In this document: piece by piece, positions 27,550-51,392 of the stretch
How the letters are laid out: every line of letters begins with the position of its first letter
Numbering within the stretch: the first letter of the stretch is position 1
NCBI GenBank assembly: GCA_964593795.1
Contig: CAZQJC010000111.1
Span: 12,608 to 76,607 of the forward strand
From: an uncultured Myxococcales bacterium
GTDB lineage: Bacteria > Myxococcota_A > Polyangia > JAHFDS01
Length of the DNA: 64,000 nucleotides
Direction of reading: 5' to 3'
Translations under genes and position numbers: made by a program
Notes under the pieces: generated by a model
The model's database searches: none
Told to the model about the DNA's origin: nothing
What the model saw: the letters and a program-made list of their open reading frames with translations, nothing else

Positions 27550-28850
27550 CGACGCTCGTCGTCGGGGCGGGTGCGACCGGGATCGAGGTCGCGCGGTTCC
27601 TCGCTCGGTCGGGCGACCGGGTCGTGCTCACGGATCGGGCGGAGAAGCGCGCCATCCCGGACGAGGTGCGGGGCGCGGTGGAGCTCGTGCTCGGCGAGCA
27701 CCGGCTCGCGGACTTCACGGGCGCGGACCGCATCGTGCTCTCGCCGGGCGTGGATCCGCGCGGGCCGGAGCTGGCGGCGGCGCGCGCGCGCGGCGTGCCC
27801 ATCACGGGCGAGATCGAGCTCGCCTCGGCGCACGTGCGCGGGACGCTCGTCGCGATCACCGGCACGAACGGCAAGAGCACCGCGACCTCGCTGTGCGGGG
27901 CGATCTGCGCGGCCACGGGCCGGCCGACGTTCGTGGGCGGGAACCTCGGTACGCCGCTCGTCTCGGCGATCGGCACGCCGGCGCTCGCGCCGGGCGGCTT
28001 CTGCGTGCTCGAGCTGTCGAGCTACCAGCTCGAGACCTGCGTGACGATGCGGCCGCACGTGGCGGTGCTCCTCAACCTCACGCCCGATCACCTCGACCGC
28101 TACGATTCTATGGCGGCGTACGGGGCCGCGAAGGCGCGCATTTTTTCCGCCCAGACCGCGGACGACTTCGCGGTCGTGCACGGCGGCGACCCGACGTGCG
28201 TGGCGCTCGCCCGGGGCCATGCGTCGCGCCTCGTGGCGCTTCCCGCGCCGACCGACGCGGAGCTCGTCCTGCCGCTACCGGCGGGCGAGGAGCGCTTCCC
28301 GACCGCGGACCTCGCGCTCGTCGGCCGGCACAACCTGGAGAACGCGGCGGCCGCCTACGCCGCCGCCCGGCTGGCGGGGGTGCCCGCCGAGGACGTGCGC
28401 GCGGGGGCGCGCGGGTTCCGGCCGCTCGACCACCGCATGCAGCTCGTCGGCGAGGCCCGCGGCGTGCGCTACTTCGACGACTCGAAGGGCACCAACGTCG
28501 ACGCGGTCGTGGCCTCCGTGCGCGGGTTCCCGACGCCGTACGTGCTCATCTGCGGGGGCAAGGACAAGGGCGGCAGCTACGCGCCGCTGGCCGAGGCGGT
28601 GCGGGGGCGGGCGCGCGCGGTGGTGCTCCTCGGCGAGGCCGCGCCGCTCATCGAAGCCGCCCTCGGCGACGCCGCGCCCCACGAGCGCGCCTCGAGCATG
28701 GGCGACGCCGTGCAGAGGGCGGCCGCGCTGGCGCGCCCCGGAGACGCCGTGGTGCTCTCGCCGGCGTGCTCGTCGTTCGACATGTTCACCGACTACAAGG
28801 ACCGCGGCCGGAGGTTCCAGGCCGCCGTGGCCGCCCTGCCCCGCGATTGA
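27546..28850 (+). CDS. murD: UDP-MurNAc-L-Ala:D-Glu ligase
   Basis: ITGTNGKST, GGNLG, ELSSYQL, DHLDRY, DDSKGTN, LSPACSSFDMF. Confidence 0.96.
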   Translation: MTTLVVGAGATGIEVARFLARSGDRVVLTDRAEKRAIPDEVRGAVELVLGEHRLADFTGADRIVLSPGVDPRGPELAAARARGVPITGEIELASAHVRGTLVAITGTNGKSTATSLCGAICAATGRPTFVGGNLGTPLVSAIGTPALAPGGFCVLELSSYQLETCVTMRPHVAVLLNLTPDHLDRYDSMAAYGAAKARIFSAQTADDFAVVHGGDPTCVALARGHASRLVALPAPTDAELVLPLPAGEERFPTADLALVGRHNLENAAAAYAAARLAGVPAEDVRAGARGFRPLDHRMQLVGEARGVRYFDDSKGTNVDAVVASVRGFPTPYVLICGGKDKGGSYAPLAEAVRGRARAVVLLGEAAPLIEAALGDAAPHERASSMGDAVQRAAALARPGDAVVLSPACSSFDMFTDYKDRGRRFQAAVAALPRD

Positions 28851-28882
28851 CGCGCGCGCCGCGCAGCGGGACCATGCGACTC

Positions 28883-30592
28883 ATGCGGATCTGTGCATGG
28901 ATGCTGGCGGTGCCGCTCGGGTGCGGCGGAGGCAAGGCCCCGGCGCCGCAGCCGAGCGTGCTCGGCACGCCGCGGCTGCACCGGCTGGACGTGGGCGGAC
29001 AGCCGTCGGGCCTCGTGCGCCTCGCCGTCGCGTTTTCGGGCGACAGGGGCAGCGCGATGCTGCTCAACGTGGCCGCGGACCTCGACGGCGACGGCAAGGT
29101 CTCGGCCGCCGAGTGGCTCGTGGTCAACACGCCGGTGGCCGTCCAGCAGGGCGAGCAGGTGATGTACCTCGCGGCGGAGACGTCGCAGCCGACGGTGCGC
29201 CTGCAGGTGGCGCTCGGCGCGCAGCTCCTGCCCGCCGGCTGGGACGGCAAGCGTCCAGCGGACGCCGACCACCTCGAGGCCAAGGTGGAGCTCGTGCCCG
29301 TCGCGATCACGCCCGCGCGGGCGAGCGCCACGCCCGGTCGCTACGGCGCGCCGCCCGCGGGCCTGCCGGTCGCGCGCCCGGTCGGCGCCGGCGCCCCCAC
29401 GCGCGACGACGGCACGAGCGTGCTCCTCAAGGACACGCCGAACATCGCGCAGGGCGACTTCGAGTGCCTGCCGACGACCATCGCAGGCAACCTCACGTAC
29501 CTCGCGCGCAAGAACAACGAGTCCATGCTCGGCACCGCCGACGCGCCGATCGACGTGGGGATCCCGGCCGATCACGTCGGCAAGAACGGCTCCGTCAACG
29601 ACGGCGTGGCCGACCTGCGCGACGCGATCAAGAAGGGAATGGGGCCGCTCTTCCACGAGCCGATGGGCGACGAGGGCGGCGTCGATCGCAAGGACCTCGT
29701 CAAGGCCAAGCACGCGGCCGTCAAGGCGCTCGGGCTCGGCGACAAGGTCGTCACGTCGCTCATCAACCCCAAGCGGGGCGCCGACGGCATGCCGCTCAAG
29801 GGGCCCGACGGCATGCCCACCGACGAGCCCGGGAGCGACGGCGCGGGCGTCTACGACGCCATCAAGGAGGCGCTCCGCCAGGGCTGCGTGGTCGAGGTCG
29901 GGATCCGCTACAAGCCGGGCGCCGCGCCGGATCCGACCATGCCCGACGACGGCTACGGCCACATCGTCAACGTCGTCGGCTTCGCCGAGGCGGGCGGAAA
30001 GGCGTCCGTCTATCTGCAGGATCCCGCGCGCGGCGCGATCCCGGGCATCGACGTGCGCGGCGACGCACCCCCGATCAGCCAGCCCGAGGTGCAGGAGCTC
30101 GGCGCGGATCACACCTCGCTGCCCGGCTACCAGAACGAGAGCTTCCGCGACATGCGAACGGGCAAGGCGCGCAGCACGCCCGGGCGGCTCGAGTTCGCGA
30201 TCAAGCAGTGCTGGCAGAAGACGCAACAGACGGGCTGCGCGGCGTTCCAGCCGGGGACGTACGCGGCTTCGCTGCTCGGCGTGACCGACAACGGCGGCCA
30301 CCAGTCGCACATCGGCAACCCGTTTGCGGGGTCGATCTCCGTCTCGGGCGGCTCGGGCAGCATCGCCTTCTCGGGCGGCTCGCCGTTCGTGCCCGTCTCG
30401 GGCTCGCTCGACGCGAGCTGCGGCGTGTCGGCGACCGGACAGGGCACGGTCGCGGGTCAGCCAGGCGTGTCGGTCGAGCTGCGCGGCACGGTGTCCGGCA
30501 GCGAGATCACCGGGACGTACCGCATGGGCACGCGCAGCGAGCTCCCGGGCGGCGGCGACATCACCTACCGCTACCGCCTCGCGAAGGAGTAG
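28883..30592 (+). CDS. Lipoprotein with a putative papain-fold cysteine peptidase domain and an EF-hand-like loop
   Basis: Lipobox VPLGC; DLDGDGKVSAAEW; IAQGDFECLPTT, GYGHIVNVVGF and YLQDP in papain-fold order. Start is 28883 or 28874. Confidence 0.6.
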   Translation: MRICAWMLAVPLGCGGGKAPAPQPSVLGTPRLHRLDVGGQPSGLVRLAVAFSGDRGSAMLLNVAADLDGDGKVSAAEWLVVNTPVAVQQGEQVMYLAAETSQPTVRLQVALGAQLLPAGWDGKRPADADHLEAKVELVPVAITPARASATPGRYGAPPAGLPVARPVGAGAPTRDDGTSVLLKDTPNIAQGDFECLPTTIAGNLTYLARKNNESMLGTADAPIDVGIPADHVGKNGSVNDGVADLRDAIKKGMGPLFHEPMGDEGGVDRKDLVKAKHAAVKALGLGDKVVTSLINPKRGADGMPLKGPDGMPTDEPGSDGAGVYDAIKEALRQGCVVEVGIRYKPGAAPDPTMPDDGYGHIVNVVGFAEAGGKASVYLQDPARGAIPGIDVRGDAPPISQPEVQELGADHTSLPGYQNESFRDMRTGKARSTPGRLEFAIKQCWQKTQQTGCAAFQPGTYAASLLGVTDNGGHQSHIGNPFAGSISVSGGSGSIAFSGGSPFVPVSGSLDASCGVSATGQGTVAGQPGVSVELRGTVSGSEITGTYRMGTRSELPGGGDITYRYRLAKE

Positions 30593-30603
30593 CCTCCACC
30601 CCC

Positions 30604-31869
30604 ATGTCCGAGCCCCCCGCCCCCGCAGCCGACGCGGCCGCGCCGACCGGCGTGCAGCCACGCCGCGCCGCGCTCGCGTTCGTCTTCGTGACGGTCCTGC
30701 TCGACATGCTCGCGCTCGGCATGATCATCCCGGTCCTGCCGCGCCTCGTCGTGGGCTTCGTCGGCGGGGACACGGCCCGCGCGGCAGAGATGTATGGCCT
30801 CTTCGGCACGGTCTGGGCGCTCATGCAGTTCCTGTGGTCGCCGCTCCTCGGGGCGCTGTCGGACCGCGTGGGGCGGCGCCCGGTCATCCTGATCTCGAAC
30901 TTCGGCCTGGCCGGCGACTACGTCCTCATGGCCCTCGCCCCCACGCTCGGGTGGCTCTTCGTCGGGCGTGTCGTCTCGGGCATCACCGCCGCGAGCATCC
31001 CCACCGCGAGCGCCTACATCGCCGACGTCACACCGCCCGAGAAGCGGGCGGGCGCGTTCGGAATGCTCGGCGCGGCGTTCGGCCTCGGCTTCGTGCTCGG
31101 CCCGGCGCTCGGCGGCCTGCTGGGCGGCCACGACCCCCGCCTGCCCTTCTGGGTCGCGGCGGGCCTCTCGCTGACGAACGCCTGCTATGGCCTCTTCGTG
31201 CTGCCGGAGTCGCTGCCGCGCGAGCGGCGCGCGGGCTTCCGCTGGGCGCGCGCGAACCCCGTCGGGGCGCTCGTGCTCCTGCGGCGTCACCCCGAGCTGC
31301 TGGGCCTGTCGGCCGTGTCGTTCCTGAGCTACCTCGCGCACCAGGTGCTGCCCTCCACGTTCGTCCTCTACGCGGGGCACCGCTACTCCTGGGGCGAGCG
31401 CGAGGTGGGACTGACGCTCGCGGGCGTCGGCGTGTGCACGGCGATCGTCCAGGGCGGGCTCATCAAGCCGCTCGTCCAGCGTCTCGGCGAGCGCAAGGCG
31501 CTCCTCATCGGCCTCCTCTGCGGCGCCGCCGGCTTCGGGATCTACGGCCTCGCACCCACGGGCCTGCTGTTCAACCTCGGCATCCCGGTGATGGCGTTCT
31601 GGGGGCTGGCCGGGCCGTCGTGCCAGGGGCTCATGACGCGGCACGTGAGCCCGTCCGAGCAGGGCCAGCTCCAGGGGGCCCAGTCGAGCCTGACCGGCAT
31701 CACCGGCATGATCGGCCCGGGCCTCTTCGCGTGGACGTTCGCGCGCGCGCTCGACCCGCACATCGCGCTGCCCGGGGCGCCCTATCTGCTCGCAGCCGGC
31801 GTCCTCGTGCTGGCGATGGGCATGGCGACCTGGGCCAGCCGCGCGGCGCGGGCCCCACAAGCTCCCTGA
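30604..31869 (+). CDS. TetA/TCR-family MFS efflux transporter
   Basis: Motif A GALSDRVGRRP, motif C FGLGFVLGPALGG, about 12 TM segments. Confidence 0.9.
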   Translation: MSEPPAPAADAAAPTGVQPRRAALAFVFVTVLLDMLALGMIIPVLPRLVVGFVGGDTARAAEMYGLFGTVWALMQFLWSPLLGALSDRVGRRPVILISNFGLAGDYVLMALAPTLGWLFVGRVVSGITAASIPTASAYIADVTPPEKRAGAFGMLGAAFGLGFVLGPALGGLLGGHDPRLPFWVAAGLSLTNACYGLFVLPESLPRERRAGFRWARANPVGALVLLRRHPELLGLSAVSFLSYLAHQVLPSTFVLYAGHRYSWGEREVGLTLAGVGVCTAIVQGGLIKPLVQRLGERKALLIGLLCGAAGFGIYGLAPTGLLFNLGIPVMAFWGLAGPSCQGLMTRHVSPSEQGQLQGAQSSLTGITGMIGPGLFAWTFARALDPHIALPGAPYLLAAGVLVLAMGMATWASRAARAPQAP

Positions 31870-32069: not shown

Positions 32070-33269
32070 ATGCACGAGAAGCCGGTCGACATCCTGCTGT
32101 TCCTGGCCGTCGTGGCCCTGCTGACGCTGGGCTCCATCATGGTGTTCTCGGCGGGCGCCGTGTACGCCCAGCAGAAGCACGGCTCGTACACGTACTTCCT
32201 CGTCCGCCAGGCCTTCTACCTGTCGCTCGGCGGGCTCGCGATGTGGCGCTTCGCGCGCATCGACTTCGGGCGCCTGCGCAAGTACGCGCCGTCGATGGTC
32301 GCCGCGTCGTTCGCGCTCCTCGTCGCCGTGCTCTTCCTCGGCGCGCGGATCAACGGCGCTCGCCGCTGGTTCCGCCTCGGGCCGCTGTCGTTCCAGCCGG
32401 CCGAGGTCGCCAAGCTCGCGCTCGTCGTGTTCCTCGCGCACTCGCTGGCCAAGCAAGCGCAGAAGCTCGGACGCTCGCCGCTCGCGTTCATCCCGCAGTT
32501 CACCATCGCGAGCATCCTGATGGGCCTCGTGCTGGTGCAGCCCGACCTCGGCACGGCGGCCATCCTCGGCTTCACGACCATCGCGGTCCTGTTCGTGTCG
32601 GGCGCGCGCATGTCGTACCTGTTCATCGCCGTGCTCGCGGCCGCGCCGGTCGCGTGGAAGCACCTCGCCGGCACGCCCTGGCGCCTCAAGCGCGTCGTCG
32701 CGTTCGTCGATCCGTGGCCGTTCCGCCGCGACATCGGCTACCAGATCACCGAGTCGCTCATCAGCGTCGGCTCGGGGGGAACCTACGGCATGGGCCTCGG
32801 CGACGGCAGGCAGAAGCTGTTCTTCCTGCCCGAGGCGCACACCGACTTCATCCTGTCGATCCTCTGCGAGGAGCTCGGGTTCGTGGGCCTTTGCTGCGTG
32901 GTCGCGCTCTTCGGCCTGCTCGTGTGGCGCGGCCTCCGCGCCGCCTGGGGCGCGCGTGACGCGTTCGGCACGTACCTGGCCTTCGGCATCACGATGCTCT
33001 TCGCGTCGCAGGCGCTCATCAACATCGGCGTCGTCCTCGGCTCGCTGCCCACCAAGGGCCTGACGCTGCCGTTCGTCAGCTACGGCGGCAGCTCCCTCGT
33101 CGTGACGATGGCGATGGCGGGGGTGCTGCTCAACATCTCGCGGCGAAACCCGGCGCCGGTCGGCCCGGACCTGCACGAGTCGCAGCGCGAGCCGCTGTGG
33201 CGTCGAATCTTCCGCCCGCGCACCTCGAAGAACCGCGCGGTCGGACGCCAGGTGGTGATCGAGTCGTGA
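32070..33269 (+). CDS. ftsW: Peptidoglycan polymerase FtsW (SEDS family)
   Basis: INGARRW, FQPAEVAK, QPDLG, LPEAHTDFI, LPFVSYGGSS. Confidence 0.96.
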   Translation: MHEKPVDILLFLAVVALLTLGSIMVFSAGAVYAQQKHGSYTYFLVRQAFYLSLGGLAMWRFARIDFGRLRKYAPSMVAASFALLVAVLFLGARINGARRWFRLGPLSFQPAEVAKLALVVFLAHSLAKQAQKLGRSPLAFIPQFTIASILMGLVLVQPDLGTAAILGFTTIAVLFVSGARMSYLFIAVLAAAPVAWKHLAGTPWRLKRVVAFVDPWPFRRDIGYQITESLISVGSGGTYGMGLGDGRQKLFFLPEAHTDFILSILCEELGFVGLCCVVALFGLLVWRGLRAAWGARDAFGTYLAFGITMLFASQALINIGVVLGSLPTKGLTLPFVSYGGSSLVVTMAMAGVLLNISRRNPAPVGPDLHESQREPLWRRIFRPRTSKNRAVGRQVVIES

Positions 33270-34324
33270 CCGTCCTCATCGCCGGTGGCGGGACGGGCGG
33301 GCACCTCTACCCCGGCATCGCCGTCGCCGAGGAGCTGCGCCGCCGCGGCCACGCCGTGTCGTTCGTCGGCACCGAGCGCGGCCTCGAGATGACCGCCGTC
33401 CCGAAGGCCGGCTTCGAGCTCGACCTCGTGGACGTCAGTGGCCTAAAGCGCGTCGGTGCGCGCGCGCTCGCGGCGGGCCTGCTGCGCCTGCCGCGCGCCA
33501 TCAGCCAGGCGCGCATCCTCCTCATGCGCCGGCATCCGTCGTTCGTGCTGGGAGTGGGCGGCTACGCCTCCGGGCCCATGCTGATCGCCGCGAAGCTCTT
33601 CGGCCTGCCGACCGCGATCATGGAGCAGAACTCGATCCCGGGCCTGACGAACAAGGTGCTCGGGCGCCTGGTCGATCGCGTGTTCGTGGCGTTCGAGGGC
33701 TCGCGCGCGTTCTTCCCGGCCAGCAAGACGGCCCTCGTCGGGAACCCGGTGCGCTCGGCCCTCGCAGGGAGCCTCCCTGCGAGCGGCGCAGCAAGGCCCA
33801 GCCTGCTGGTGTTCGGGGGCTCGCAGGGAGCGCGGCGCCTGAACGAGCTGGTGCCGCAGGCGATCGCGCTCTGCCCCGAGCGGCCGCGGGTCCTCCACCA
33901 GACGGGCGCCGCGGACGTCGACGCCACGCGCGAGCGCTACGCGCAGCTCGGCGTCGAGGCCGACGTGCGGCCGTTCATCGACGACATGGCGAGCGCGTAC
34001 CGCGGGGCGGACGTGGTGGTCTGCCGCGCGGGCGCGACCACGCTGGCGGAGCTCGGAATCGTCGGAAAGCCCGCGATCCTGGTGCCGCTGCCCACCGCGG
34101 CCGACGACCACCAGACCAAGAACGCGGCGGAGCTCGTCGCCGCGGGCGCGGCGCTACTCCTGCCGCAGCCTGGCCTCGAGCCGCCGGCGATCGCGGAGGC
34201 GCTCGGGGCGCTGCTCCGCGATCCCGCGCGCCGCGCGCAGATGTCCGAGCGCATGCGCGCCCTCGGGCGGCCGCGCGCCGCGAGCGACATCGCCGACGCG
34301 GTCGAGCAGCTGGGCAAGCGCTGA
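33266..34324 (+). CDS. murG: Lipid II GlcNAc transferase
   Basis: GGGTGGH, GGYAS, EQN, GGSQG, RAGATT, DHQTKNA. Confidence 0.97.
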   Translation: MTVLIAGGGTGGHLYPGIAVAEELRRRGHAVSFVGTERGLEMTAVPKAGFELDLVDVSGLKRVGARALAAGLLRLPRAISQARILLMRRHPSFVLGVGGYASGPMLIAAKLFGLPTAIMEQNSIPGLTNKVLGRLVDRVFVAFEGSRAFFPASKTALVGNPVRSALAGSLPASGAARPSLLVFGGSQGARRLNELVPQAIALCPERPRVLHQTGAADVDATRERYAQLGVEADVRPFIDDMASAYRGADVVVCRAGATTLAELGIVGKPAILVPLPTAADDHQTKNAAELVAAGAALLLPQPGLEPPAIAEALGALLRDPARRAQMSERMRALGRPRAASDIADAVEQLGKR

Positions 34325-34337
34325 CCGCGCCCGATGC

Positions 34338-34823
34338 CTAGCCCGGGATGCAGAAGGAAAAGACGCCGAAGTCGCTCTTCATCCCGGCCGACACGGTGAT
34401 CGTGACCTGCCAGAGCCCCGCCATGAACAGGTTCACGTTGTCGACCTTGTACGCGTCGCCGGCCGGCGTGATCGTGGGCACGATCGACGTGCCGTGGCCG
34501 TGGTCCGGCATGAACGGCTTGACGTCCAGCGTGGCGCCCATCACCGGTGCGCCCGCGGCGTCGAGCACCTTGAGCATCCAGTTGTTGTTGCCCTTGGTGG
34601 GCGGCGCCGGGTCGCTCGAGACGAGCACCAGCTTGAGCCGCGCCTCCTTGCTCGGCAGCTCCATGTTGGCCGCGTAGGTCATCGCCCGCATGTCGGTCAG
34701 GCAGCCGACCACGTTGCTGCCCCCCGCCCCGGCCGTGCCGGCCGCGCCCGCGCCCCCACCGCCGTCACCGCCACAGGAGGAGCCAACCAGAATCGCGAGG
34801 ACCAGTCCGATTGCGAGCTTCAT
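34338..34823 (-). CDS. YtkA/FixH-like lipoprotein (MPDHGHG motif)
   Basis: Lipobox GSSC, Gly linker, PFMPDHGHG, LFMAGLWQVTI. Confidence 0.75.
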   Translation of the reverse strand: MKLAIGLVLAILVGSSCGGDGGGGAGAAGTAGAGGSNVVGCLTDMRAMTYAANMELPSKEARLKLVLVSSDPAPPTKGNNNWMLKVLDAAGAPVMGATLDVKPFMPDHGHGTSIVPTITPAGDAYKVDNVNLFMAGLWQVTITVSAGMKSDFGVFSFCIPG

Positions 34824-34937
34824 GACCACCTTGCCTACGTACGCGCGAGCTTGGCAGAGCGTTACACACATCGCAAGGCGCCCGGTCGTGCGCCGGAACC
34901 CTTGACGGATCGCCCCGCCCCGGGTCTGCTTCGGACG

Positions 34938-35372
34938 ATGTGGCGTGCGGGGGCCGCGATGGCCCTGTCGATCCTGTTCGGTGGCTGTGGCGACTCGGCG
35001 CCGCCTGCCACCCCGATGTGCGTGCCGAGCCTGGACCTCGCCTGCCGGCCGCTCTACGCGGACACCTCGTACCAGAACCTCTTCGACAAGATCATCAAGC
35101 CCACCTGCGCGAGCAGCGCGGGCCAGTGCCACAGCGCCGGCGGGCGCGAGGGTGGGCTCGTCCTCGAGGACGCCGACGCCGCCTACGCGCTGCTCCTCGG
35201 CACCACTGACGGTCGAGCGCGCGTCAAGGCCGGCGACCCGAAGTGCAGCCTGGTGATGGAACGGCTGGAATCCGACGACGCCGCGTTCCGGATGCCGCCC
35301 TCGTCGGCGAAGCTCTCGAGCGAGATGCGCTGCAACTTCACGCTCTGGATCGCGCAAGGAGCCAAGCGATGA
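34938..35372 (+). CDS. Lipoprotein with a non-canonical CX6CH haem-like motif (probable monohaem cytochrome c)
   Basis: Lipobox FGGC; IIKPTCASSAGQCH; distal RMPP Met ligand candidate. Confidence 0.6.
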   Translation: MWRAGAAMALSILFGGCGDSAPPATPMCVPSLDLACRPLYADTSYQNLFDKIIKPTCASSAGQCHSAGGREGGLVLEDADAAYALLLGTTDGRARVKAGDPKCSLVMERLESDDAAFRMPPSSAKLSSEMRCNFTLWIAQGAKR

Positions 35373-36889
35373 CCCTTCGGCGCGCCCTGTGGGCGCTCGC
35401 CTGTGTCCTGTCCGCGTGCGGTGAGCGCACGCCGTCCAAGCTCCTCTCGCGCGAAAAGCTCATGGACCCGATGTCCTGCGCCGAGTGCCACGCGGACCAC
35501 TACAAGGACTGGTCGGGCAGCATGCACGCCTACGCCGCCGAGGACCCGGTCTTCATCGCGATGAACAAGCGCGGCCAGCGCGAGACCGGCGGCGCGCTCG
35601 GCGACTTCTGCATCAAGTGCCACGCGCCGCTCGCCGTCTCCGAGGGGCTGACCAGGGACGGCCTGAACCTCGACAGCGTGCCGAAGCACTTGAAGGGCGT
35701 GACCTGCTACTTCTGCCACAACGTCGTCGCCGTCGAGGGCACGCACAACAACCCCCTCAGGCTCGCGAACGACACGACGATCCGCGGCCCGCTCAAGGAT
35801 CCCGACGCGGTCCCGAACACGGCGCACGCGTCGGCGTACTCGACGCTGCACGACCGCGACGAGGCCGACTCCGCCAAGCTCTGCGGGAGCTGCCACGACA
35901 TCGTGACGCCGAAGGGGGCGTTCATCGAGCGCACGTACGACGAGTGGCAGAAGTCCGTCTTCTCGATGCTCGCCAAGGGCGTCACGTGCGGGCAGTGCCA
36001 CATGCCGCAGTCGCGCGACCTGCGGCCCGTCGCCAAGGCCCCCGGCGTGGGCGTGCGCCGCTACCACAGCCACCAGTTCGCCGGCGTCGACGTCGCGCTG
36101 ACGCCCTTCCCGGAGAAGGAGGCGCAGCGCGCGGCCATCGACGACTTCTTCGAGTCCAGCACGCAGAGCGCGCTCTGCGTGCTCAACCGCGGCACGAACG
36201 CAGCCGTGCGCGTGATCGTGGACACCGTCGACGTCGGCCATTCGCTGCCGAGCGGCTCGTCGCAAGACCGCCGCCTGTGGACCGAGGTCATCGCCTACAA
36301 GGACGGCCAGGTCATCTACCAGAGCGGCGTCCTGCCCCCGAACGGCCGCATCACCGAGGCCGACGCCGACACGTGGATCCTCCGCGACCGCATGCTCGAC
36401 GACGCGGGCAAGGAGGTGCACATGTTCTGGGAGGCGGCCTGCTACGAGTCCCAGACGCTGCCGGCACAGACGACGTTCGACACGCGGAGCCCCGACTTCT
36501 TCAAGACCCACAAGGTGCAGTCGTTCCCGCGCGGCGACTTCAGCAAGACGTTCGCGGGCGTACCCGATCGGGTGACGCTGCGGCTTCGCCTGCAGCCGAT
36601 CGGCCGCGACGTGCTCGACGACCTCGTGGCGAGCGGCGATCTCGATCCCGCGGTGCGCGACGCCATGCCGATCTTCGATGTCGTGATCGGGCACCAGACG
36701 CTGCCGAGCGGCGAGACGAAGCCGCTGACCGTGCTCGAGTGGACCCCCGAGCTCGCGATGGACGCGACCGTCGGCTTCCCCTACACGGAGCAGGGCATCC
36801 CGGTGACCTGCGTCACCCAGTCGAACATGAACAAGTCCGCCGAGAAGTTCCCGCCCGAGACGACGACGTCCTGCCCGGCCCGCCCCTGA
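35369..36889 (+). CDS. Pentahaem c-type cytochrome lipoprotein
   Basis: Lipobox LSAC; five CxxCH motifs: CAECH, CIKCH, CYFCH, CGSCH, CGQCH. Confidence 0.92.
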   Translation: MTLRRALWALACVLSACGERTPSKLLSREKLMDPMSCAECHADHYKDWSGSMHAYAAEDPVFIAMNKRGQRETGGALGDFCIKCHAPLAVSEGLTRDGLNLDSVPKHLKGVTCYFCHNVVAVEGTHNNPLRLANDTTIRGPLKDPDAVPNTAHASAYSTLHDRDEADSAKLCGSCHDIVTPKGAFIERTYDEWQKSVFSMLAKGVTCGQCHMPQSRDLRPVAKAPGVGVRRYHSHQFAGVDVALTPFPEKEAQRAAIDDFFESSTQSALCVLNRGTNAAVRVIVDTVDVGHSLPSGSSQDRRLWTEVIAYKDGQVIYQSGVLPPNGRITEADADTWILRDRMLDDAGKEVHMFWEAACYESQTLPAQTTFDTRSPDFFKTHKVQSFPRGDFSKTFAGVPDRVTLRLRLQPIGRDVLDDLVASGDLDPAVRDAMPIFDVVIGHQTLPSGETKPLTVLEWTPELAMDATVGFPYTEQGIPVTCVTQSNMNKSAEKFPPETTTSCPARP

Positions 36890-36985
36890 CGCCGCGCGCG
36901 GCACGCCGCCCCGCCTCCGCGACATCTTGACGCAGGGCCGGGACACGACCGGCTGCGTAGCATCTGCGACCGAACCCCTCGGAGG

Positions 36986-37687
36986 ATGACGATGAAGACG
37001 GCTTTCTGGATCGCTGGAGTGCTCTGCGTGGCGCTGGCTGGGTGTGGGGATGACAAGGGCGCTGCGGGGACCGGCGGCGCTGGAACCGGGGGCGCGGGCG
37101 GCATGACCGGTGGTGGGGGCGGCGCGGGCGCCGGCGGAGCGGCGGCGTGCGCGAGCCCCGGCGGCGCGGTGACGGGCGCAGCCGACGCGCACTGCACGAT
37201 GACCGTGACCATCAACCAGGCCTCCTGCGGCGGCGCGGGTGGGGCGGGCGGCATGGGCGGCCACGACCACGGAATGGCCGGCATGGGCGGCGCGGGCGCG
37301 GGCGGCGAGATGGGCGGCGAGATGTACCCGCCCACGATGAGCAACGCCGAGGGCGACGACGACGACTGCAAGTACCACCTCAAGTGGACCTCGACCGCCG
37401 TGTGCCAGAACAGCGACGTCTTCTTCACGGTGACGCTCACCAAGAAGAAGGACGGCATGGCCGCCGGTGGCGGCAAGACCTCCGCCGAGGTCTACCTCGA
37501 CGAGATGCACCCCGCGCCGAACTCCAACCAGATGACGACCGAGACCTCGCCCGGCGTCTACAAGGTGGGCCCGATCCGGTTCGACAAGGCCGGCAAGTGG
37601 ACGGTCCGCTTCCACACGTTCGAGGAGTGCGCCGACGCAGAGGACTCGCCGCACGGCCACGCCGCGTTCTACGTCAACGTGCCGTGA
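36986..37687 (+). CDS. His/Met-rich lipoprotein with a YtkA/FixH-like C-terminal domain
   Basis: Lipobox LAGC; GGHDHGMAGM linker; DEMHPAPN; GKWTVRFHTFEEC; PHGH. GGAGG RBS. Confidence 0.6.
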   Translation: MTMKTAFWIAGVLCVALAGCGDDKGAAGTGGAGTGGAGGMTGGGGGAGAGGAAACASPGGAVTGAADAHCTMTVTINQASCGGAGGAGGMGGHDHGMAGMGGAGAGGEMGGEMYPPTMSNAEGDDDDCKYHLKWTSTAVCQNSDVFFTVTLTKKKDGMAAGGGKTSAEVYLDEMHPAPNSNQMTTETSPGVYKVGPIRFDKAGKWTVRFHTFEECADAEDSPHGHAAFYVNVP

Positions 37688-37703
37688 CCGTGCGCGCGGC
37701 CGG

Positions 37704-38093
37704 ATGAGCCTGCTCCGCGCCGCCCTTGTCGCCGCCGTCGTCGCCTCGGGCTGCGGCGGCGGCGATCCCGCGGGCCCGGCCGACGCGGGCGCGCGCGACG
37801 CGGCGCTGACCTGCCCGAACGATCTCCCCGCCGCCTGTCCCGCACCCGCACCGAGCTACGCGAACGACGTTGCGCCGCTCATCCAGCGCCGCTGCACGCC
37901 GTGCCACTTCCCGGGTGGCGTCGCCGCGATGGGAATGCACGATCTGTCGACCTACGCGCGCGTGTTCGCGCAGAAGCGCGAGGTGCTGACGCAGGTCTAC
38001 GCGTGCAAGATGCCGCCGGCCGACGCGGGCGCCCCGACGCCCGACGAGCGCAGGACGATGCTCGGCTGGCTCGTCTGCGGGGCCCCCGAGTAG
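37704..38093 (+). CDS. Monohaem cytochrome c lipoprotein
   Basis: Lipobox ASGC; CTPCH; distal KMPP. Confidence 0.82.
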   Translation: MSLLRAALVAAVVASGCGGGDPAGPADAGARDAALTCPNDLPAACPAPAPSYANDVAPLIQRRCTPCHFPGGVAAMGMHDLSTYARVFAQKREVLTQVYACKMPPADAGAPTPDERRTMLGWLVCGAPE

Positions 38094-38094
38094 C

Positions 38095-38279
38095 TCCGAG
38101 CCGGCCACTAGCACGAACGAATAGTCTCGCCGGTCCGTCCGAGGCGAGCGCAGCGAGCCGCACGGGCGTCGCGAGCGCAGCGAGCGAAGACGCAGGGAGG
38201 GGGGCCCAGTTGGGCTGTGCCCAACTGGGGGAGGGGCGGCGCGCCCCTCCTGGTGGCCGGCTTCCGAGCCGGCCACTAG
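38095..38279. repeat. Dispersed palindromic element (family A) flanked by a 17-bp direct repeat TCCGAGCCGGCCACTAG
   Basis: Direct repeats at 38095-38111 and 38263-38279. 38133-38247 is the reverse complement of 46929-47042 with about 6 differences. Confidence 0.85.
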
Positions 38280-39193
38280 TAAGAGGCCCAGCGCAGGCCG
38301 AGCGAGCCGCCTACCCGGCCGGGCTGGTTGTCGCCGAGGTGATCGAAGAGCAAGCCCACGTCGATGCCCGCCTGCGCGGTGAAGTGCTCGCTGAAGTCCC
38401 ACGCCACCGAGAGGCCCACGCCCGAGTCCGCGCGGCCGGAGTTGTCGACCGTGCGCCCGTCGACCGTGAGGGACGACTCCCACGACATGCGCAGGAGCGC
38501 GCCGACCACCACCTTGCCGGGCACCACCTCGAGGCCGCTCGCGAGGCCCACCGCCACGCCGGGCCCGAAGCGCTGCGAGACCTGCGTGTCCGCGCGCTCG
38601 CGCGGCAGGGGGATCGTGGCGCCCACCGTGCCCTGGAGGAACGTGCCGCCCCAGACCTGCTCGAGGATCAGCGCGGGCGAGAGCACCCACGCGCCCCGGC
38701 CCGTGGTGTCGGCGGCGAGCTGGCTTCGCGACTCGTCGACCGGACGCCCGAGCGGCGCGAGGACGCCGAGCGAGAGCGCCACGCCCGGCCACGCGCCCGC
38801 CTCGCCCACGTTGTAGAGGTCGTAGCGCGCCGCGACCTGCGCGTCGCCGAGGCCCCCGCCGCGCTCGCTCCGCAGCGTGCCGTCGCGCTGGTTGAGCACC
38901 ACCGGCAGGAGCGCGTAGAGCTGCACGCGCTTCTGCACGCGCACGAGGCCGAACGCCGAGAGCCGCCACTCGCGCTCACCGTAGCCCTCGAAGCCTCGGA
39001 AGCGACCGTCGGCGTCCCACTGCCCCGGCGCCGTGGAGAACGCGCCCGTCAGCCCGACCGCGCCGTCCTCCCACATGCGCAGGCGCGGCACGCCGACCGA
39101 CGACGACACGCAGCACGCCGCGGCCGCCGCGTCACGCGCGAGCGCGAGCCCACCGAGGCAGATCACGGCCGCCAAGGGCCAGCCGCACCTCAC
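38276..39193 (-). CDS. Putative outer-membrane beta-barrel ('transporter'/MetA-pathway-like) with a Cys-Cys pair at the mature N-terminus
   Basis: Signal peptide then AACC; GGLGD motif; alternating beta-strand pattern; C-terminal GLRWASY. GTGA overlap with the upstream gene. Confidence 0.6.
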   Translation of the reverse strand: MRCGWPLAAVICLGGLALARDAAAAACCVSSSVGVPRLRMWEDGAVGLTGAFSTAPGQWDADGRFRGFEGYGEREWRLSAFGLVRVQKRVQLYALLPVVLNQRDGTLRSERGGGLGDAQVAARYDLYNVGEAGAWPGVALSLGVLAPLGRPVDESRSQLAADTTGRGAWVLSPALILEQVWGGTFLQGTVGATIPLPRERADTQVSQRFGPGVAVGLASGLEVVPGKVVVGALLRMSWESSLTVDGRTVDNSGRADSGVGLSVAWDFSEHFTAQAGIDVGLLFDHLGDNQPGRVGGSLGLRWASY

Positions 39194-39579
39194 GGCACGT
39201 CGACGGGGAACATCTTCTTGCCACGCAGCGCCCCCTGCGTGGCCGTCACGTTGACCTCCCAGCGGCCCACCATGATGAGCGACACGGGATCGGCCTTGTA
39301 CTGCCCGCCGCCGAGATCCTGGATGACCGGGACCTCGGGGCTGCCGTGCCCGTGGGCCGGCATCTCCGGGTCCACGGCGAGCGTCGCCCCCGCCACCGGG
39401 TTGCCCATGAGGTCCTTGAGCGTGAGCGTCATCGTGTTGCGCCCGACGATGGGCGGCGTCTGATCGACCCTCGCCTCGATCACGAAGTCGGACTTCTCGT
39501 AGGGTGGGGCATCGCTGCCGCACGCGGCGGCGACGCACGCGGCGACCAGGATCAAGCAGACGTGGCGTACGGACCGCAT
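39190..39579 (-). CDS. YtkA/FixH-like lipoprotein (MPAHGHG motif)
   Basis: Lipobox AAAC; PEMPAHGHG; LIMVGRWEVNV. Alternative start at 39597. Confidence 0.8.
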   Translation of the reverse strand: MRSVRHVCLILVAACVAAACGSDAPPYEKSDFVIEARVDQTPPIVGRNTMTLTLKDLMGNPVAGATLAVDPEMPAHGHGSPEVPVIQDLGGGQYKADPVSLIMVGRWEVNVTATQGALRGKKMFPVDVP

Positions 39580-39593
39580 CGAGACCTCTCGGT

Positions 39594-39968
39594 TCATTCC
39601 ACGACGGCGAGCACGCCGCCGATCATCATGCCCATCGCACAGCCGAACTTGACGTCGCCCGAGCGAGCCGGTGTGTAGGTCACCTCGACCGCCTTGCCGA
39701 TCGGCAGCTCGGTCGCGCCGGGCTGGCCGTCGAACTGGATCTCGGTCGCGCACGTCTTGCCGACCTCGCGCGTGATGACGAGCCTCAGCGGCACGCCCTT
39801 CCTCGCCGGGATGCGCGCAGGCACGAAGCCCGCGTCGGTCACCTTGACGACCACGCGGTCGCCGCTCGCCGGGGGGCCCGCCACCGGGGCACCCGCCGGA
39901 GGCGGCGCCGGCTGCGACGCGCACGCGAGCAGGCCAGCGGCCAGGAGGAGGAGCGTCGAACAGGTCAT
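39594..39968 (-). CDS. Cupredoxin-domain lipoprotein
   Basis: Lipobox LLAC; KVTDAGFVPARI, KTCATEI and FGCAMGMMIG match CupA/EfeO-type cupredoxins. Confidence 0.82.
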   Translation of the reverse strand: MTCSTLLLLAAGLLACASQPAPPPAGAPVAGPPASGDRVVVKVTDAGFVPARIPARKGVPLRLVITREVGKTCATEIQFDGQPGATELPIGKAVEVTYTPARSGDVKFGCAMGMMIGGVLAVVE

Positions 39969-40121
39969 GCGACATGCATGCCCGCCGGGCACGAGGCTGT
40001 CAAGGCGCCCGCGCGGCACACCCCAGCGTACAACCCGCCTCGCCCCACGCCCTGCGGCGAAACGTCGCAGGGCGCCGCCCCCGGAGTTGCCCCGGCGCGG
40101 CCGACCGCGTCAAATGTGGGC

Positions 40122-41501
40122 GTGTTCCGGGGACGCCGCATCCGCATCCATTTCGTAGGCATCGGCGGCATCGGCATGTCCGGCATCGCCGAGGTGCTGG
40201 TCAACCTCGGCTACGACGTGCGCGGCTCCGACGCGGCCGACCAGGAGACCACGCGTCGCCTGGCGCGCCTCGGCGCGCACCTCCACCGCGGGCACGCGCG
40301 CGAGCACGTCGGCGACGCGGAGGTCCTCGTCGTCTCGAGCGCCATCGGCCCCGACAACCCCGAGGTGATCGAGGCGCGCGCCCGGAAGATCCCGGTCATC
40401 CAGCGCGCCGAGATGCTCGCCGAGCTCATGCGCATGAAGTACGGCGTCGCGGTCGCGGGCTCGCACGGCAAGACCACGACCACCTCGCTCGTCGCCACGG
40501 TCATGATGGCCGCCGGCCTCGATCCCACGGTCGTCGTCGGCGGCAAGCTCAGCGCCTTCGGCTCGTCGGCGCGCCTCGGGGCGGGCGACACGCTGGTCGC
40601 CGAGGCCGACGAGAGCGACGGCTCCTTCCTGCACCTGACGCCGACCGTCGCGGTCGTGACCAACGTCGACCGCGAGCACCTGTCGCACTTCGGCACCTTC
40701 GAGCGCCTGTGCGACGCGTTCCGGCAGTTCGTCGACAAGGTGCCCTTCTACGGCGCCGCGGTGCTCTGCGCCGACCACCCGGTGTGCGCGCAGCTCGCGC
40801 GCGACCTCGAGCGCCCCGTCGTCACCTACGGCTTCGCCGAGGGCGCGGACTTCCGCGGCCGCGACGTGCGCTTTGCGGGCACCACCACGCGCTTCGACCT
40901 CGAGCGCCGCGGCGAGCCGCTCGGCACGTTCGCGATCGCCATGCCTGGCGCGCACAACGCGCAGAACGCGCTCGCCACGCTGGCCGTCGCGGACTTCCTC
41001 GGCATCGACCTCGAGACCGCGCGCGTCGCGCTCGAGGCCTTCGGGGGCGTGGCCCGCCGCTTCACCATCCACGGCGAGGCCGCGGGCGTCCTCGTGGTCG
41101 ATGACTACGGGCACCACCCGGCGGAGATCGAGGCCACGCTCGCGGGCGCGCGCGGCGCCTACCCCGACCGGCGCCTGGTGGTCGCCTTCCAGCCGCACCG
41201 CCACAGCCGCACGCGCGATCTGTTCGACGAGCTCGCCGCCGCCTTCCGCGGCGCGGACCGCGTGCTCCTCGCCGACACCTACGCGGCCGGCGAGGCGCCG
41301 ATCGCGGGCTTCGACGCCGCGCGCCTCGCGCAGGCGATGGCGAGCCACGGCATCGCCGTGACGCACGTCGGGCCGCGCGCCCAGGTGACGCCGGCCGCGG
41401 TCGCGGAGCTGCGCGCGGGGGACCTCTTCCTCGCGCTCGGCGCCGGCGACATCGTGCACTCGGCGGACGAGGTGCTCGCGAGGCTCGCCGCGCGGACATG
41501 A
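40122..41501 (+). CDS. murC: UDP-MurNAc:L-Ala ligase
   Basis: HFVGIGGIGMSG, GSHGKTTTT, EADESD, DDYGHHPAE, FQPHR. Confidence 0.97.
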   Translation: MFRGRRIRIHFVGIGGIGMSGIAEVLVNLGYDVRGSDAADQETTRRLARLGAHLHRGHAREHVGDAEVLVVSSAIGPDNPEVIEARARKIPVIQRAEMLAELMRMKYGVAVAGSHGKTTTTSLVATVMMAAGLDPTVVVGGKLSAFGSSARLGAGDTLVAEADESDGSFLHLTPTVAVVTNVDREHLSHFGTFERLCDAFRQFVDKVPFYGAAVLCADHPVCAQLARDLERPVVTYGFAEGADFRGRDVRFAGTTTRFDLERRGEPLGTFAIAMPGAHNAQNALATLAVADFLGIDLETARVALEAFGGVARRFTIHGEAAGVLVVDDYGHHPAEIEATLAGARGAYPDRRLVVAFQPHRHSRTRDLFDELAAAFRGADRVLLADTYAAGEAPIAGFDAARLAQAMASHGIAVTHVGPRAQVTPAAVAELRAGDLFLALGAGDIVHSADEVLARLAART

Positions 41502-42409
41502 GCGACTGGCGGAGCGAGCTCGCCGCCGCCTGCCGGGGCGAGGTGCGCAGGGACGAGCCCCTCGCGCGTCACACCACGCTGCGCATCGGCGGCCCCGTGG
41601 ACGCCTGGGTGGCGCCGGCCGACCTCGCCGATCTCGCGGCCGTGCGCGCCTTCTGCCACGCGCGGGGCCTGCCGTGCGCGCCGCTCGGCGCGGGCTCGAA
41701 CCTCCTCGTGCGGGACGGCGGCGTGCGCGGGGTGCTCCTCGCGACGGACAACCTGCGCGGCCTCGAGCGCACCGGCGAGGTGATCCGCTGCGAGGCAGGC
41801 GTCTCGACCGGCAAGCTGCTCTCGGTGGCCACGCAGGCCTCGCTCGGCGGCCTCGAGTTCCTCGGCGGCGTCCCGGGCTCGGTGGGCGGGGGACTGCTCG
41901 GTAACGCCGGCACGTACCTCGGCGAGTTCAAGGACGTCACCACCGAGGTCGTCTCCATCGACGCCGCGGGCCGCGAGGTCCGCCGGGACAACGCCGCCTG
42001 CGGCTTCGTCTACCGCGGCAGCGCCCTGCCGCGGAGCGAGATCATCGCCTCCGCGACGTTCACCCTGCGCCCGCGCCCCAGGGCCGAGATCGAGGCCGAC
42101 GTGCGCGCGCTGCGCGACCGCCGCCACGCGCGCGAACCGAAGAAGGTCGCCAACGCCGGCTCCTTCTTCAAGAACCCGCCGGGCGACTTCGCGGGCCGCC
42201 TCATCGAGGCGTGCGGCCTCAAGGGCCGCCGGCAGGGCGCGGCGGAGATCTCGCCCGTGCACGCCAACTGGATCGTCAACACGGGCGGCGCGACCGCGGC
42301 CGACGTCCTGGCGCTGGTGGAGCTGGCGCGCGCCGCGGTGGAGGCCCGCTTCGGCGTCCGGCTCGAGCTCGAGGTCAAGGTGATCGGAGAGGAGACCCAT
42401 GCGGCTTGA
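41498..42409 (+). CDS. murB: UDP-N-acetylenolpyruvoylglucosamine reductase
   Basis: LRIGG, GAGSNLL, PGSVGG, GNAG, AGSFFKNP, HANWIVN, LELEV. Confidence 0.96.
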   Translation: MSDWRSELAAACRGEVRRDEPLARHTTLRIGGPVDAWVAPADLADLAAVRAFCHARGLPCAPLGAGSNLLVRDGGVRGVLLATDNLRGLERTGEVIRCEAGVSTGKLLSVATQASLGGLEFLGGVPGSVGGGLLGNAGTYLGEFKDVTTEVVSIDAAGREVRRDNAACGFVYRGSALPRSEIIASATFTLRPRPRAEIEADVRALRDRRHAREPKKVANAGSFFKNPPGDFAGRLIEACGLKGRRQGAAEISPVHANWIVNTGGATAADVLALVELARAAVEARFGVRLELEVKVIGEETHAA

Positions 42410-43718
42410 CGCATGCATAGCGCTCGCGCTCTGGGCCTTGCCCGCCTGCTCGGCGCTGACGTCCAGGGACCGGCCGGCCGCGGCGGCGGACGGCGCCGCA
42501 GGTCGCTCCGACGGCGGGCGCGGGGGCGCGGGCATGGGGATGGCGGGGGCGGGCGGCGGAGGTACGGGCGGCGGAGTTGCGGGCGGCGGTGGCGCCGGCA
42601 TGGGCGGCGGGGGAAGCCCCGGACCTGGACCGGATGGCCCGGGCTCGTGGCAGCCGATGACGCAAACAGGCGCGCCGTCCCGGCGCGTCTTCCACGGCAG
42701 CGCATGGAACGGAAACCACCTCGCGATCTTCGGCGGCGAGAACGGCAACGGGGTCCCGGTCGCAGACGGCGCGCTCTACGAGCCCGTGGGCGACGTCTGG
42801 CTCCCCCTGCCGACGGCGAACGGCCCGAGCGCGCGGCGCTGGCCCGCCTGCGTGTGGGCCGGCAGCGAGCTCTTCGTCTGGGGCGGCGACGGCAGCGCCG
42901 ACTCCACCGCGCTCCGCGGCGACGGCGCGCGCTACCAGCCGCTCAACGGCCGCGGCACCTGGGCCCCGACACCCGCGGACGGCGCGCCCGGCGCGCGGAT
43001 CCAGCACACGGTGGTGTGGACCGGCTCCGAGGTCCTGCTCTGGGGCGGTTTCACCAACCTGCCGGCCCTCGGTCCGCTCGACGACGGCGCGCGCTACCGG
43101 CCCGGCGATCCCTCCTTCACCCCGATCCCGGGCGGCCAGGGCCCCGAGAAGCGCATGGACCACTCGGCCGTGTGGACCGACAGCGAGATGATCGTCTGGG
43201 GTGGCCACGATGGTCTGCGCACGCCCTACGACAGCGGCGGGATCTTCACGCCCTCGAGCGGCGCCTGGCGACCGACCACCAAGGCCAGCGCGCCGACCCC
43301 GCGCCTCGGCCACGTCGCGGTGTGGACCGGCAGCGAGATGATCGTCTGGGGCGGGCAGGCGCTCGGCATCGGCGACGGGCTCGGGACCGGCGGCGCCTAC
43401 GATCCCACGACCGACAGGTGGCGAATCCTGCCGACGGAGGGCGCGCCGAGCCCCCGCGTCTACACGAGCGCCGCCTGGACCGGCAGCGAGATGATCGTCT
43501 GGGGAGGCGCCATCGAGGTGCCGACGCGACGCACGTTCGGAGACGGCGCGCGCTACCGCCCCGCAGAGGATCGCTGGCTGCCGCTGGCGACGGACGGCGC
43601 GCCCGCGGGCCGTACGTACGCCTCGATCGTCTGGACCCGGAGCGAGCTCATCGTCTGGGGCGGCCTCGCGGAAGGCGGCGCCGTCGCCGACGGCGCGCGC
43701 TGGAGACCCGATCGGTAG
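42399..43718 (+). CDS. Kelch-like seven-bladed beta-propeller lipoprotein
   Basis: Lipobox LPAC, Gly linker, seven WxGSEMIVWGG-type repeats. Confidence 0.85.
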   Translation: MRLDACIALALWALPACSALTSRDRPAAAADGAAGRSDGGRGGAGMGMAGAGGGGTGGGVAGGGGAGMGGGGSPGPGPDGPGSWQPMTQTGAPSRRVFHGSAWNGNHLAIFGGENGNGVPVADGALYEPVGDVWLPLPTANGPSARRWPACVWAGSELFVWGGDGSADSTALRGDGARYQPLNGRGTWAPTPADGAPGARIQHTVVWTGSEVLLWGGFTNLPALGPLDDGARYRPGDPSFTPIPGGQGPEKRMDHSAVWTDSEMIVWGGHDGLRTPYDSGGIFTPSSGAWRPTTKASAPTPRLGHVAVWTGSEMIVWGGQALGIGDGLGTGGAYDPTTDRWRILPTEGAPSPRVYTSAAWTGSEMIVWGGAIEVPTRRTFGDGARYRPAEDRWLPLATDGAPAGRTYASIVWTRSELIVWGGLAEGGAVADGARWRPDR

Positions 43719-51383: not shown

Positions 51384-51392
51384 TCGAGGCGC

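Follow-up and report, generated by a model that had tools for sequence, protein, structure and literature searches.

A conserved pentahaem cytochrome and YtkA-like lipoprotein gene cluster of Polyangia, a possible envelope module for copper redox chemistry

Eight genes for exported proteins between murG and murC

We analysed a 64,000-nucleotide stretch of DNA, here called the window, from an uncultured Myxococcales bacterium (contig CAZQJC010000111.1). Between murG (33197–34324) and murC (40110–41501), positions 34338–39968 hold eight genes for exported proteins, g1–g8, arranged in three transcription units on both strands. All eight are present as described in an earlier note made from the sequence alone. 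They encode three YtkA-like lipoproteins (g1, g4 and g7), a pentahaem c-type cytochrome (g3), two small cytochrome-like lipoproteins (g2 and g5), an outer-membrane β-barrel (g6) and a CupA-like cupredoxin (g8). The g1 gene stands alone on the minus strand, divergent from the plus-strand genes g2–g5; the minus strand also carries g8, g7 and g6. Four-base overlaps join g8 to g7 and g7 to g6, and the stop codon of g2 overlaps the start of g3. Seven of the eight proteins carry a lipobox of the PROSITE-type pattern and g6 instead has a signal peptide followed by the triplet A-C-C, as the claim that all are exported and seven lipidated had it. The cluster is an undescribed envelope system. Its modular organization and redox character are well supported; that it serves as an extracytoplasmic module in which a cytochrome drives copper redox chemistry and trafficking is a plausible reading that we hold tentatively.

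A profile search with the g3 family over one genome per species matched at least 599 stretches, of which at least 559 were confirmed. Nearly every one of the best 80 loci of this search bears a Myxococcota label, in most cases that of Polyangiaceae or Polyangiales. Neighbours were counted with iterated profiles on the six-frame open reading frames (ORFs) of 81 loci containing a g3 homologue. YtkA-like genes occur in 68 of these loci, in 63 of them within 2.5 kb of g3. The g2 type was found in 32 loci, the g5 type in 33 by tblastn (32 by profile with g2-family ORFs excluded), the second YtkA-like family represented by g4 in 24, and the g6 barrel in 12. A g8 cupredoxin was present in a single locus, L003. 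Within 2.5 kb of g3 homologues the density of YtkA-like genes is 0.261 per kb, compared with 0.014 per kb in the 2.5–10 kb flanks, an 18-fold difference. Three other families of the cluster show similar enrichment, and overall the families are 12–40 times denser near g3 than in these flanks. Four loci (L007, L008, L014 and L028) carry one same-strand array, g4-g7-g6-g5-(g2)-g3-g1. The g1 family is the most frequent neighbour or fusion partner of the pentahaem cytochrome; fusions of g3 to a g1-type YtkA domain, which retains MPDHGH and FMPGxW, were found in the database proteins P0036, P0085 and P0092 and at loci L002 and L021. Because of this recurrent synteny, the shared operons and the fusions, seven of the eight genes belong to one conserved modular system, and the distribution supports the g1–g7 families as one functional module, a modular envelope system of Polyangia. 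The earlier idea of a single module stands for seven linked families but not for g8, a lineage-specific gene.

The cluster is self-contained, and its flanking genes give no recurrent partner. When 106 flanking ORFs sampled from 63 of the 81 loci were compared with Pfam, 133 families came up, each in four ORFs at most; beyond kinases, TonB-dependent receptors and BNR propellers, no neighbour recurred. A BNR/Sortilin-like β-propeller, which has about 480 residues and a MYXO-CTERM-like tail, neighbours g3 homologues in 24 loci, often directly upstream. These include L019, L024, L029, L044, L050 and L054, as well as some loci without YtkA-like genes. The propeller gene is absent from the window.

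The position of the island within the division and cell wall (dcw) gene cluster is incidental, because in an 84%-identical relative (L003) the island adjoins murC but is bordered on the other side by an acyltransferase gene and an iron superoxide dismutase gene. The content of guanine plus cytosine (GC) is 0.68–0.77, the same as in the flanks, and neither tRNA genes nor flanking repeats were seen around the island; there is therefore no sign of a recent foreign insertion. One might still suppose that in this island two or three operons with no relation to each other came together by chance in a dcw gap. Its three transcription units lie on two strands, its cupredoxin is unlinked in other genomes, and this genome has further unrelated genes inserted in its dcw cluster: between murD and ftsW there are an MFS transporter gene and an ORF that matches no Pfam family (28850–31869), and between murB and ddl there is a Kelch-repeat gene (42399–43718). 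We regard this as highly improbable overall, since seven families co-occur repeatedly, form a single operon in several genomes and yield fusion proteins; for g1–g7 the synteny refutes it. The Kelch insertion is missing from the close relative L003.

The divergent intergenic region between g1 and the g2–g5 unit spans 114 nucleotides (34824–34937) and presumably holds promoters. Scanning the island region, this segment included, gave no sigma-70-like promoter and no meaningful terminator, and no Rfam match rose above chance level between 33 and 41 kb. The convergent spacer between g5 and g6 (38094–38275, 182 nucleotides) is bounded by a 22-nucleotide direct repeat (38095–38116 and 38263–38284, 91% identical), a copy of the 3' end of g6, which may be the footprint of a rearrangement that joined two units. 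A sequencing-run search found matches only in DNA runs, from bioreactor and pond metagenomes.

Cytochromes, YtkA-like lipoproteins, barrel and cupredoxin

The g3 gene (35369–36889, plus strand) encodes a lipoprotein of 506 residues with a PHC fold, in which the N-terminal part forms a five-haem cap and the C-terminal part an Ig-like stem that bears a GHSLPSGS loop. Its five CXXCH motifs (CAECH, CIKCH, CYFCH, CGSCH and CGQCH) are invariant in 30 homologues, and the lipobox Cys17 is invariant in the homologue alignment. Pfam reported Cytochrome_C554 and several other multihaem families. A g3 profile matched pentahaem cytochrome c552 of Thermochromatium tepidum (PDB 5ZE8) with E 1.6e-13; its match to MccSep was weaker. 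The AlphaFold2 model has a mean predicted local distance difference test score (pLDDT) of 83.4, and its only significant Foldseek match was again 5ZE8 (E 7e-13, probability 1.00, template modelling (TM) scores 0.53/0.68). Gly290 and His291 are invariant and Pro294 and Gly296 conserved, and this loop aligns with the loops of 5ZE8 and MccSep. The haem motifs and the predicted fold support an electron-transfer role for g3.

The PHC family includes Geobacter ExtKL, since renamed MccSep, a polysulfide reductase (bioRxiv 10.1101/2025.11.18.688581). Its active site is made by Sec325, in a D-G-U-P loop of the Ig-like stem, and by the distal haem 2 ligand Cys239 (bioRxiv 10.1101/2025.11.18.688581). Sec325 (GHSIPDG-U) aligns to Ser297 of g3 (GHSLPSG-S), and Ser is the family consensus at this position. 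The Cys239 segment QCCTSY aligns, in a weak part of the alignment, to AFIERTY of g3 (Ile186/Glu187), which has no Cys. Both defining residues are missing; g3 is therefore a PHC member and not an MccSep-type enzyme, an assignment we rejected. A broader version of the idea makes g3 an MccSep- or NrfA-like oxidoreductase of sulfur, nitrogen or peroxide species, with the YtkA-like proteins structural or presenting substrate, much as the ExtH rhodanese does for ExtKL. It draws on the fold and GHxxPxG loop common to g3, MccSep (a characterised enzyme; bioRxiv 10.1101/2025.11.18.688581) and T. tepidum c552, and on the invariant Glu187 and Arg188 of g3 at the place of the haem-ligating Cys. Yet the absence of both catalytic residues tells against it, the homologue alignment holds enough invariant His for five bis-His haems, and the conserved Met/His site of the YtkA-like partners, the fusions and the CupA-like addition would be left unexplained. 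We consider a small-molecule enzyme rather unlikely.

Two of the partner lipoproteins, g1 (34338–34823, minus strand, 161 residues) and g7 (39190–39597, minus strand, 135 residues), match the YtkA-like family PF13115 with 45.1 and 41.6 bits, above its gathering cut-off of 25.9 bits. They carry FMPDHGHG and EMPAHGHG, respectively, in agreement with the note's two YtkA/FixH-like lipoproteins with an MPxHGHG motif; g1 also has LFMAGLW and a C-terminal FCIPG. The FixH match of g7 is weak (16.8 bits, under the cut-off). The lipoprotein g4 (36986–37687, plus strand, 233 residues) falls below the PF13115 threshold with 20.4 bits and represents a divergent second YtkA-like family; iteration of its profile nevertheless ends at the same set of 107 YtkA-like ORFs. 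An alignment of these ORFs with the three window proteins (110 rows) gives the pattern M-P-x-[H/M]-x-H ... M-P-G-x-W. Of its four strongly conserved site columns, the first holds Met in 80 of 110 rows and the fourth Met in 81; the second has His in 69 rows or Met in 11, and the third has His in 107. The aligned sequences suggest that the YtkA-like families probably share a disulfide. In other loci the g7-type subfamily, with the motif W-M-P-x-[M/H]-x-H-G, always lies directly upstream of the barrel, and its first His is frequently Met (W-M-P-A-M-G-H-G). Such His/Met interchange fits a soft Cu(I) site and speaks against iron or zinc.

In g4, the conserved motifs are D-x-HC, EGDDDDCKYH, HPAPN, RFH and SPHGH (27 homologues, 24 loci), with EGDDDDCKYH and SPHGH invariant in the family. 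The protein also contains a Gly/Met/His-rich stretch, GGMGGHDHGMAGMGG (37230–37330, residues ~82–115), built of short GC-rich direct repeats. This insert is missing in L003, and the conserved His residues lie elsewhere; it is therefore a recent low-complexity expansion and not a conserved feature. Thus the earlier description of a third, His/Met-rich lipoprotein keeps the lipoprotein and loses the significance of its richness in these residues.

The acidic EGDDDDCKYH patch would suit hard cations and bears on a reading in which the same architecture handles another metal, for example iron or manganese in a reductive process at the envelope; g3 would reduce or oxidise the metal, the YtkA-like proteins would carry it and the barrel would be its uptake pore. 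PHC relatives belong to ext clusters of Geobacter that take part in reducing Fe(III) and Mn(IV) (PMC6148476), and TonB-dependent receptors account for four of the 106 flanking ORFs. However, Met-rich, His/Met-interchanging sites are poor ligands for iron or manganese, the protein added to the cluster is of a Cu(I) chaperone type, and no recurrent iron permease, siderophore or Fur-type genes were found among those 106 ORFs. We judge this version of the module unlikely.

Of the two small cytochrome-like lipoproteins, g5 (37704–38093, plus strand, 129 residues) is a monohaem c-type cytochrome with the motifs CPNDLPxxC, CTPCH, YACKMPP and WLVCGAP. It has a CXXCH and an MPP but no Pfam match, and its profile picks up g2-family ORFs; g5 is related to PSCyt1 and to g2. 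The g2 protein (34938–35372, plus strand, 144 residues) matches PSCyt1 (PF07635, 35 bits) and contains RMPP, yet it lacks CXXCH and has C-X6-CH (CASSAGQCH) in its place, a spacing kept in 32 syntenic homologues. Therefore only g5 carries a canonical haem motif, and the two small haem proteins of the earlier account are reduced to one clear case. The g2-like family is large, with 1133 matches at E<=1e-3 and 257 at 1e-10 among 1.84 billion cluster representatives. A single C-X4-8-CH is found in 143 of its 150 best representatives (P0254–P0403), and CXXCH appears only in six multi-domain proteins. The spacing is X6 in 98, X8 in 28, X5 in 10, X4 in 4 and X7 in 3; MP[PR] is kept in 118 of the 150. 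Most likely, g2 and g5 wire g3 to the respiratory chain.

The outer-membrane protein g6 (38276–39193, minus strand, 305 residues) starts at a GTG that overlaps the stop codon of g7 and ends in an aromatic residue. Its AlphaFold2 model (pLDDT 83.4) has 12 long strands, and Foldseek placed it closest to FapF (5o67, E 1e-15, TM 0.70/0.74) and a COG4313 channel (4rl8, E 8e-13). No Pfam family matched g6 itself, and 2 of 12 database homologues carry PF13557. The Cys-Cys pair noticed earlier is borne out. The A-C-C (residues 26–28, 39107–39115) directly follows the signal peptide in all full-length homologues, the N-terminally truncated P0128 being without that region, and a conserved G-R-L-x-x-W-E segment comes after it. 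The triplet may serve as a plug, bind a metal or form a vicinal disulfide. The barrel was found in only 12 of the 81 loci and is therefore accessory.

None of the cluster proteins has Lys at position +2, the inner-membrane retention signal of M. xanthus (PMC3222651), and the lipoproteins would accordingly be anchored in the outer rather than the inner membrane. This, together with the pairing of a lipoprotein multihaem cytochrome with a barrel that recalls the Mtr and Ext clusters (PMC6148476), raises a further possibility, a trans-outer-membrane conduit for extracellular electron transfer or a FapF-like barrel that displays lipoproteins or unfolded polypeptide on the cell surface. The closeness of g6 to the polypeptide transporter FapF and the MYXO-CTERM propellers adjoining g3 in 24 loci could be taken the same way. 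On the other side, a 12-stranded barrel of 305 residues is too small to sheathe a cytochrome, the barrel is accessory, and a periplasmic partner with ten or twelve haems is missing. On barrel size we rejected a porin-cytochrome conduit of the Mtr/Ext/Pcc type, in which a barrel of at least 20 strands sheathes a periplasmic multihaem cytochrome and a surface cytochrome is added, and we regard the broader surface proposal as quite unlikely.

The cupredoxin lipoprotein g8 (39594–39968, minus strand, 124 residues, with an alternative GTG start at 40019) matches Cupredoxin_1 (PF13473) with 34.7 bits, above the cut-off of 27 bits. Searches with phmmer related it to CupA (2mry/4f2e, E 7e-9) and to the cupredoxin domain of CopA (4F2F, E 2e-6). 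Cys73 and C111-A-M-G-M align with the CupA ligands Cys74, Cys111, Met113 and Met115, and the four Cu(I) ligand residues are conserved in nine homologues, which upholds the proposed C...CxMGM cupredoxin. Homologues 60–70% identical to g8 occur as single lipoprotein genes in unrelated genomic settings, and g8 is a lineage-specific addition, not a core member. The residue at +2 after the lipobox Cys is mostly Lys in stand-alone homologues (P0144, P0156, P0208 and P0223) and Ala in the island-linked g8 and in P0135, P0136, P0138 and P0139. This change from Lys to Ala hints, if the signal is extrapolated across classes, that g8 was relocated from the inner towards the outer membrane.

A tentative copper reading of the module

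We infer copper as the substrate metal from the YtkA domain, the chemistry of the Met/His site and the recruitment of a CupA-type protein. A genetic link between YtkA domains and copper is known only from Bacillus (PMC9145763, PMC13344008). There, CuA assembly at low copper requires the YtkA-domain protein CtaK, which a His118Tyr change inactivates (PMC9145763, PMC13344008), and YcnJ's YtkA domain is partly redundant with CtaK (PMC9145763, PMC13344008, PMC12362106). CupA has two sites for Cu(I) and can reduce Cu(II), after which it needs an electron source to be reset (PMC5646241). Of the earlier proposal that electron transfer is coupled to copper here, the electron-transfer half is borne out by the haem motifs and PHC fold; copper is plausible on indirect grounds.

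In the mechanism we propose, the core would be the lipid-anchored pentahaem g3 cooperating with g1, g7 and g4, whose YtkA-like domains would present the Met/His metal site. Copper bound at this site would be switched by g3 between Cu(II) and Cu(I). Cu(I) would then be handed to the cupredoxin g8 and on to extracytoplasmic cuproenzymes; alternatively, the end step could be the oxidation of toxic Cu(I). The g6 barrel, always paired with a g7-type YtkA protein, would give passage across the outer membrane, and g8, translationally coupled to g7 and g6, would have been added in this lineage. We likewise infer the direction of electron flow and the role of the barrel. The more specific proposition, that a PHC cytochrome and a YtkA Met/His domain together make an unrecognised haem-driven extracytoplasmic copper reductase or oxidase widespread in Polyangia, is doubtful.

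Several observations weigh against copper and keep this reading tentative. No oxidase, P-type ATPase, Sco or CopCD gene was found when the main ORFs between 1 and 56 kb of the window were scanned against Pfam, which agrees with the note's remark that oxidase and CopA genes are absent. The P-type ATPase motif DKTGT occurs in none of the 81 loci, Sco and cox genes were missing from the 106 flanking ORFs sampled, and no copper regulator, cuproenzyme, CopA, Sco or CopCD was seen in the scanned window ORFs or the 81 loci. Only g8 is unambiguously a copper protein, and it was added recently and found in a single other locus. The structural relatives of g6 are channels for polypeptides or hydrophobic molecules, a barrel class without known metal-ion transport, and the suggested passage of Cu(I) through the barrel gains nothing from them. 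The Met/His site could take another soft metal, only the Bacillus YtkA paralogues have been studied so far (PMC12362106), and haem attachment at the C-X6-CH of g2 is putative.

A link to a nearby MNIO operon had also been proposed, with a distance of about 9 kb. The MNIO gene (MbnB/TglH family, 51384–52271) lies 11.4 kb from the island and the probable first gene of its operon starts at 49948, about 10 kb away. Housekeeping and other genes lie between, including murC, murB, the Kelch protein gene, ddl, ftsQ and ftsA. We rejected this link because none of the 81 g3 loci contains an MNIO homologue. Directly upstream of the MNIO gene, 49948–50661 and ~50655–51383 encode tandem paralogues, 49% identical, with twin-arginine-like signals and a shared C-terminal motif, G-C-G-V-[ED]-V-E-G ... 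C-G-M-G-H-V-P. They may serve the MNIO enzyme as substrates or partners.

A YtkA domain beside or fused to a five-haem cytochrome leads to a testable hypothesis, that the metal of this domain is handled by redox chemistry. None of the papers searched links YtkA or FixH with multihaem or pentahaem cytochromes. If the haem-driven copper reductase or oxidase considered above is real, the YtkA/CtaK domain gains a biochemical role as a redox-gated copper carrier, and the missing electron source of CupA-type chaperones would be named. The scale is considerable, given the 559 or more confirmed stretches in species-representative genomes. The little-studied PHC cytochrome family is extended beyond sulfur respiration, and a large PSCyt1-like family with an unusual C-X4-8-CH motif is a by-product of the analysis.

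Comparison with known systems

Cytochrome g3 resembles c552 and other members of the PHC family, which also include Gsu2801 and the PHCs of cable bacteria, in its five CXXCH motifs within an N-terminal cap, its Ig-like stem and its GHxxPxG loop. It differs from these relatives in a sequence identity of only about 17%, in being a lipoprotein, and in having neither Sec nor Cys in the loop and no Cys haem ligand. Like that of g3, the gene cluster of ExtKL includes an outer-membrane barrel and accessory lipoproteins, in its case with a variable rhodanese among them (PMC6148476), and a substrate-handling lipoprotein combined with a PHC cytochrome and a barrel is a useful analogy for the island. The partner of g3 is a YtkA-like metal-site protein rather than a rhodanese, the barrel has 12 strands compared with 21 predicted for ExtI, and the host clade is Polyangia.

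The g6 barrel shares with FapF (5O65) and with the COG4313 channel Pput2725 (4RL8; PF13557) a 12-stranded architecture of about 300 residues and a TM score of about 0.7. Unlike them, it has an invariant N-terminal A-C-C, is encoded without Fap genes and is only 13–18% identical. With Streptococcus pneumoniae CupA (4F2E/2MRY) and the N-terminal cupredoxin domain of CopA (4F2F), g8 shares the Cupredoxin_1 fold, a CxMxM motif and two aligned Cys residues. It is an exported lipoprotein, whereas CupA is anchored on the cytoplasmic face; its gene has no CopA or CopY partner and lies with those of a YtkA-like protein and a barrel.

In the systems built around CcoG/FixG with FixH, and around PCuAC, a cupric reductase and a FixH/YtkA-like or Met/His Cu(I) carrier supply copper to an oxidase. 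CcoG is an inner-membrane iron–sulfur protein, whereas the candidate reductase here is a multihaem lipoprotein, and no ccoI or ccoNOQP genes lie near the island. The Bacillus YtkA proteins share with g1 and g7 the same Pfam domain, the conserved His and Met, and the nature of lipoproteins placed at the outer face of the cytoplasmic membrane or in the envelope (PMC9145763). There, the domain works with Sco and CopC/CopD in the service of CuA; here, no Sco, CopCD or oxidase genes were found nearby in the scanned ORFs, and the domain is instead paired with or fused to a pentahaem cytochrome. Also unlike the Bacillus setting, three paralogous YtkA-like families stand together in one cluster.

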